Below are positions 34,165 through 34,391 of a stretch of DNA of 64,000 nucleotides, piece by piece. The stretch's first letter is position 1; the number at the start of each line of letters is the position of its first letter. The notes below the pieces were generated by a model. It did not search any database. It saw only the letters and a program-made list of their open reading frames with translations, and was not told where the DNA came from. Location of the stretch: NCBI RefSeq assembly GCF_003019035.1, contig NZ_CP027447.1, one strand, 5' to 3'. This DNA is from Escherichia coli (lineage in GTDB: Bacteria > Pseudomonadota > Gammaproteobacteria > Enterobacterales > Enterobacteriaceae). A program made the translations under genes and the position numbers.

Positions 34165-34391
34165 GATGAAGCAAGGAGGTGCCCCATGCGTCAGTTTTAT
34201 CAGCACTATTTTACCGCGACAGCGAAGTTGTGCTGGTTGCGTTGGTTAAGCGTCCCACAACGATTAACTATGCTGAAGAACTGATGCAGTGGGAGGGGAG
34301 TCATTCTGACTACTGATTTGCGGACATCATGTGTGACTGAGTATTGGTGCTAATCGCCACGCCAGCAGTGATTATCTGCTGGCTTTTTTCT
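34165..34391 (+). ncRNA. sgrS: small RNA SgrS (glucose-phosphate stress), with intrinsic terminator at ~34361-34395
   Basis: Starts gatgaagcaaggaggtgcccc; conserved seed catcatgtgtgactgagtattggtg; terminator gccagcag-tgattat-ctgctggc followed by T-run; divergent from sgrR. Confidence 0.88.
34186..34284 (+). CDS. sgrT: small protein SgrT encoded within SgrS (32 codons here)
   Basis: MRQFYQHYFTATAKLCWLRWLSVPQRLTMLKN; N-terminal 29 residues match K-12 SgrT as I recall it, then premature stop. Confidence 0.7.
   Translation: MRQFYQHYFTATAKLCWLRWLSVPQRLTMLKN

Follow-up and report, generated by a model that had tools for sequence, protein, structure and literature searches.

A one-base deletion truncates sgrT in the Escherichia coli ST648 clone within an otherwise unchanged SgrS RNA

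The stretch of DNA analysed here, which we call the window, is 64,000 nucleotides of the Escherichia coli contig NZ_CP027447.1 (assembly GCF_003019035.1). At 34165..34390 on the plus strand it encodes a full-length SgrS small RNA. The Rfam RF00534 covariance model matches with 218.7 bits (E = 3.7 × 10−62) against a gathering score of 37, and the match takes in model positions 1-232 of 232, so the RNA is not truncated. As is characteristic of SgrS, it is divergent from sgrR, the transcriptional activator of sgrS, which is intact at 32439..34097 on the minus strand, and it is placed between the thi transporter genes and leuD (34424..35029, minus strand), the gene directly downstream. The gene names come from a RefSeq-annotated locus (L001) that is 100% identical to the window; sgrR stands at the equivalent position there with 1659 nt, and in the mechanical list of open reading frames it is the open frame 32439..34118. 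Upstream of thiB, the TPP riboswitch expected at this locus is found at 31300-31399 on the minus strand (RF00059, 66.1 bits). Between that riboswitch and sgrR there is a 189-aa ORF (31640-32209, plus strand), named as the T3SS effector EspY2 in the identical RefSeq locus; at this position the K-12-type locus has no espY2-like gene annotated.

The sgrT reading frame within SgrS has a Shine-Dalgarno AGGAGG at 34174..34179 (plus strand) with the ATG 6 nt further on. In this region the window has A where K-12 has G (column 28 of alignment A1), giving GGAGGTGCCCC, the commoner non-K-12 form of the ribosome-binding site. Further 3' is the SgrS base-pairing (seed) region CATCATGTGTGACTGAGTATTGGTG at 34325..34349 (plus strand), which occupies columns 176-200 of alignments A1 and A3, all invariant, and is unchanged in 4 of 4 aligned alleles (ST648, CFT073-type, O157, and K-12). 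An earlier reading of this DNA made from the sequence only had described the seed as intact, and the string it quoted is the one found. After the seed comes an intrinsic terminator at 34361..34389 (plus strand), with a stem of GCCAGCAG / CTGCTGGC, a 7-nt loop, and a U-run according to the Rfam consensus structure, so that the RNA has the conserved 3' base-pairing region and then the terminator with U-tail by which an SgrS is recognized.

The sgrT frame itself is truncated. It runs from 34186 to 34284 on the plus strand as 32 codons plus TGA, and its translation, MRQFYQHYFTATAKLCWLRWLSVPQRLTMLKN-stop, is exactly the peptide quoted in the sequence-only reading, which had called the frame shortened to 32 codons and had proposed a 1-nt indel relative to a K-12 SgrT of 43 aa. 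We aligned the window with a CFT073-type allele (HCM-27C-1, L002), a K-12-type allele (L003), and the allele of O157:H7 Sakai (L008). The window's only gap in the alignments is a deleted base in ...ATGCT[T]GAAGAA..., where one T of the TT in the Leu30 codon CTT (34273..34274, plus strand) is missing as a single gap column in both A1 and A3. The indel is thus real and at the predicted place, being evident in codon 30 against the closest intact allele, the CFT073-type (tail EELMQWEGSHSDY), as well as against K-12 (tail EGLMQWDDRNSES). The intact neighbour L002 encodes MRQFYQHYFTATAKLCWLRWLSVPQRLTMLEELMQWEGSHSDY, a 43-aa protein (WP_001248768.1) ending ...TMLEELMQWEGSHSDY, while the window's protein ends ...TMLKN at 32 aa. 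The K-12-type SgrT is also 43 aa, ending ...TMLEGLMQWDDRNSES, so the length and differing tail given for it were right, and K-12 SgrT does not end at the window's stop. The number of N-terminal residues common to the window peptide and K-12 SgrT had been given as 29; it is 30, as the change from CTT to CTG leaves Leu30 in place.

The CFT073-type allele is the comparator of choice, since K-12 has many more differences 3' of codon 30. Over 331 nt from the sgrR-sgrS intergenic region to leuD, the window has 99.7% identity to the intact-sgrT strain, and the aligned SgrS stretch is base-for-base the same as in HCM-27C-1 except for the deleted base. Shine-Dalgarno, seed, terminator, promoter region, and sgrR are all as in intact-sgrT strains, and the CFT073-type locus has the same order of espY2, sgrR, sgrS, and leuD, with setA absent as in the window. 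Downstream of the lesion, the 3' remnant of sgrT is still readable out of frame at 34275..34316 (plus strand), as EELMQWEGSHSDY plus the original TGA at 34314-34316, judged from the intact L002 translation of the same bases.

The old-tail frame is the end of an ORF at 34179..34316 in the mechanical ORF list, and 2 ways by which the tail might still be made were considered and rejected. The ORF would be GTG-initiated with 45 aa, the old tail being in frame, and we do not take it to be a gene: it shows no relation to SgrT in its first 30 residues, and it is without a ribosome-binding site of its own because its GTG falls inside the Shine-Dalgarno. Programmed −1 frameshifting that restores the tail was ruled out on inspection, as ...AUG CUG AAG... 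contains no slippery heptamer.

A missing T might also be a sequencing or assembly error in a gene that is really intact, and single-base indels being the commonest kind of error is the one point in favour of this. The distribution of the deletion makes it hardly credible. An exact 61-mer across the deletion is found in 57 of 5,426 complete E. coli genomes, which were deposited independently and come from many different laboratories, hosts, and years; the deletion falls in a TT dinucleotide and not in a long homopolymer; and the carriers are all on one local haplotype. We reject an assembly artefact on the strength of these 57 genomes with one haplotype. A further 1,050 genomes match the 61-mer at 95-99%, with all sampled rows in that band one base longer, which is expected if the T is present. 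When a 6-kb query is used, 56 of the 57 carriers rank first, with a listed identity of 100.0%, and 53 of them reach the full score; the haplotype ranked below them has 99.2% and a match one base longer, again as expected with the T.

Four of the carriers have been published as ST648 (IMT16316, Ecol_881, MS6198, and a strain named 'ST648'), and MS6198 and strain 'ST648' are tabulated as phylogroup F. SMS-3-5, which is ST354, as well as IAI39 and CE10, have kept the T, in that an engineered intact-frame 74-mer is mismatched in them only at the engineered base. Hence the deletion is a single event that is fixed in the ST648 clone within this collection, and it is apparently a clean marker of this high-risk clone. 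To that extent the view of the lesion taken from the sequence only has to be refined: the frameshift stands, although it is ST648-wide instead of private to one genome, and RefSeq had annotated it already. In 2 of 2 carriers checked, the PGAP label is "sgrT, frameshifted" with pseudo status, so the lesion is already known in the sense that public annotation marks sgrT as a pseudogene. Among the papers listed in a literature search, none contained both sgrT and ST648.

The sole carrier outside the 6-kb top list is HS-02 (L007, NZ_CP172818.1, 412-2854). Its thiB-sgrR spacer is ~300 bp shorter, espY2 is not annotated, and its sgrR is 1710 nt as compared to 1659 nt, which suggests either a further local deletion around espY2 and sgrR or an assembly problem. 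An independent origin of the sgrT deletion in HS-02 was rejected, because its flanking protein accessions are the same as those of FDAARGOS_497, making it the same lineage and not a second event. In other matches of 331 nt (H11, H13, and H16) sgrT is intact, which places their difference in length elsewhere in the region.

What the truncation removes can be judged from homologs and from a structure model. A word-indexed search yielded almost only Escherichia sequences, while an exhaustive profile search of representatives reached other genera and found SgrT down to ~49% identity. In an alignment of 13 full-length homologs at ~47-84% identity, W36 is present in 13 of 13 and LMQW in 12 of 13, and a largely conserved L-E/D-x stands before the LMQW. 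The window peptide, ending ...MLKN, is missing this L-E-x-LMQW-E motif of the C-terminal helix. An AlphaFold2 model of the intact SgrT has helices at residues 2-13, 16-19, and 23-40 with a mean pLDDT of 85.1, and the frameshift cuts the predicted third helix at residue 30, removing more than half of it. On the Pfam SgrT family PF15894 the window peptide matches only positions 1-30 of the 46 in the profile and scores 36.5 bits, which exceeds the cut-off of 27, and the intact alleles score 50.0 and 49.6 bits at positions 1-36, so that ~13.5 bits of the score reside in residues 31-37. SgrT homologs have been described as 40-57 aa (PMC2760817), and at 32 aa the window peptide falls short of that full-length range. 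No usable SgrT model was found in NCBIfam. Given the lost segment and half helix, the 32-aa SgrT most likely no longer inhibits PtsG (EIICB-Glc), and from conservation and the structure model we consider it probably inactive.

The opposing interpretation, that the peptide is a length variant, with a C-terminal third that is dispensable, and is still wholly or partly active as a PtsG inhibitor, has several points to draw on. The score is above the Pfam gathering threshold. All 6 invariant columns of the alignment (F4, Y8, F9, W17, L18, and L27) are within residues 1-30 and are kept. C-terminally tagged SgrT (3xHA, GFP halves) works (PMC3901232), so fusions at that end are compatible with function. 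The same paper identifies KTPGRED as the target of SgrT on PtsG, mapping the PtsG side and not the active part of SgrT, and truncation mutagenesis of SgrT was not found in a literature search. Lastly there are short alleles elsewhere. SgrT of 34 aa ending ...LEELM is found in E. coli on 117 contigs (P0019) and in E. albertii (P0027); NCBI names these products SgrT, and the two differ in upstream substitutions, which suggests a recurrent nonsense mutation at Gln35. That would mean either that the tail is dispensable or that decay is recurrent. The complete genomes gave no exact match to a 74-mer engineered with CAG-to-TAG in the CFT073-type sequence. Against an active 32-residue peptide are the near-universal conservation of the lost LMQW and W36, the Pfam bits that go with residues 31-37, the loss of more than half of helix 23-40, and the PGAP call of a frameshifted gene, and on this balance we hold continued activity to be unlikely.

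The conservation of the LMQW codons has a second side at the RNA level. A long-range helix pairs window positions 34182-34200 with 34278-34296, both in the Rfam consensus and in minimum-free-energy folds, joining the sgrT start region (CCCAUGCGUCAGUU) to the ...GAACUGAUGCAGUGGG segment. The latter contains the codons of the conserved ELMQW motif and forms the 3' strand of the helix. Because the LMQW codons pair with the start region, their conservation may be partly RNA-level, and in these models the segment is constrained both as protein and as RNA structure. The deleted T sits at the inner end of the long helix, which is kept in the predicted folds of both alleles; the minimum free energy is −83.3 kcal/mol for the deleted allele versus −81.3 kcal/mol for the intact one, making the deleted allele 2 kcal/mol more stable. 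The 3' seed and terminator parts of the predicted folds are the same in both, with the terminator hairpin seen in each. All base-pairing determinants of SgrS have been published to be in the 3' region, and SgrS homologs without sgrT, in Yersinia, to be competent riboregulators, so riboregulation by the ST648 RNA should be unaffected. Judging by the retained elements, control of ptsG and the remaining targets by base pairing should be no different from that in other E. coli, and induction of SgrS by SgrR under glucose-phosphate stress and Hfq-dependent repression of ptsG are probably retained.

With a probability of roughly 85%, then, sgrT in ST648 is a clonal frameshift pseudogene whose SgrT activity is likely lost, in an otherwise unchanged SgrS that is still riboregulating. 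The ancestor of the ST648 clone, in phylogroup F, would have lost one T from codon 30 of sgrT. Ribosomes starting at the AGGAGG-ATG would then read Lys-Asn-stop after Leu30 and release a 32-residue peptide in which the conserved ...E-x-LMQW-E segment is missing and the predicted C-terminal helix lacks its second half, while SgrS would keep its promoter region, its SgrR activator, its seed, its terminator, and its overall fold. What is observed directly is the lesion with its position and clonal distribution, together with the intact RNA elements; loss of SgrT activity along with retained riboregulation is what we infer from them. This is also the substance of what the sequence-only reading had offered, namely riboregulation probably kept and SgrT altered or inactive, and it is the best-supported account, with the loss of activity argued from conservation and the structure model.

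Other SgrS RNAs that do without SgrT help to place this allele. The SgrS of O157:H7 is sgrT-null by a change of the start codon from ATG to ATT with the seed intact (Horler & Vanderpool 2009, PMC2760817), and we confirm that change in O157:H7 Sakai at L008 343-345, equivalent to window 34186-34188. The ST648 allele is of the same riboregulation-only kind in that the frame is broken, the seed and terminator are unchanged, and the allele is fixed; in both cases full-length SgrT is lost in a pathogenic clone. The lesions are independent events on different branches, and they differ in consequence: initiation is abolished in O157:H7 and no peptide is expected, whereas initiation is intact in ST648 and a 32-aa peptide is expected. 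The ST648 frameshift is accordingly a second independent case of an SgrS reduced to its RNA function. An exact 63-mer for the O157:H7-type ATT is found in 312 of the 5,426 complete E. coli genomes, making that allele ~5x commoner than the ST648 frameshift in this collection. Yersinia SgrS has also lost sgrT and is riboregulation-only, showing that the RNA function can stand alone, but there the entire 5' coding part is gone, leaving RNAs of 84-139 nt, while the window has a full-length RNA with only the frame broken. The K-12 SgrS shares with the window the first 30 residues of SgrT, the seed, and the divergent sgrR, and differs in the C-terminal tail, in the terminator loop and flank, and in having setA downstream. 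K-12 GGGGGTGCCCC forms an inhibitory hairpin over the ribosome-binding site that limits SgrT synthesis, so that little SgrT is made (PMC2760806). The non-K-12 site is without that hairpin, and hence the ancestral SgrT of ST648 was probably translated better than that of K-12.

A more ambitious proposal is that in successful pathogenic clones of E. coli SgrT has been lost convergently and under selection, with SgrS riboregulation kept: ST648 and O157:H7 would gain from active PtsG under sugar-phosphate stress while RNA control is kept. Its examples would be the frameshift in ST648 and the lost start codon in O157:H7, perhaps joined by the nonsense alleles of 34 aa. It fits with 2 independent lesions each fixed in a successful clone (57 frameshift and 312 ATT genomes), with a seed untouched by both, and with an ancestral SgrT that was probably well expressed. 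Still, these are 2 events in a sample heavy in clonal pathogens, where neutral decay and hitch-hiking fit equally well, and K-12 with little SgrT copes by base pairing alone (PMC2760806), suggesting that selection on sgrT is weak across E. coli in general. We regard both the selective advantage and the convergence as quite improbable. If they were true, post-translational inhibition of PtsG would carry a cost in host niches, and a dual-function RNA would have been repeatedly reduced to a single function.

The finding is minor alone, being a one-base deletion in a 43-codon gene and an ordinary lineage-specific pseudogene that NCBI has flagged; some E. coli lineages are known to be able to dispense with SgrT. 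When the frameshift and the O157:H7 allele are counted together, at least 369 of the 5,426 complete genomes of E. coli (6.8%) have an SgrS unable to make full-length SgrT. The ST648 strains are natural material on the role of SgrT beyond base pairing and on the need for the LMQW tail in PtsG inhibition.

A further feature of the locus is what follows the terminator. In the K-12-type locus L003, the sugar efflux gene setA is present between sgrS and leuD, 3' of sgrS. It is absent from the window at 34390-34424, leaving the leuD stop ~34 nt from the SgrS terminator. Among the rows sampled from the complete genomes, the match extends as far as leuD in those with at least 97.6% identity, and extrapolating from sampled rows and identity bands, seemingly ~40% of genomes are setA-less at this site.
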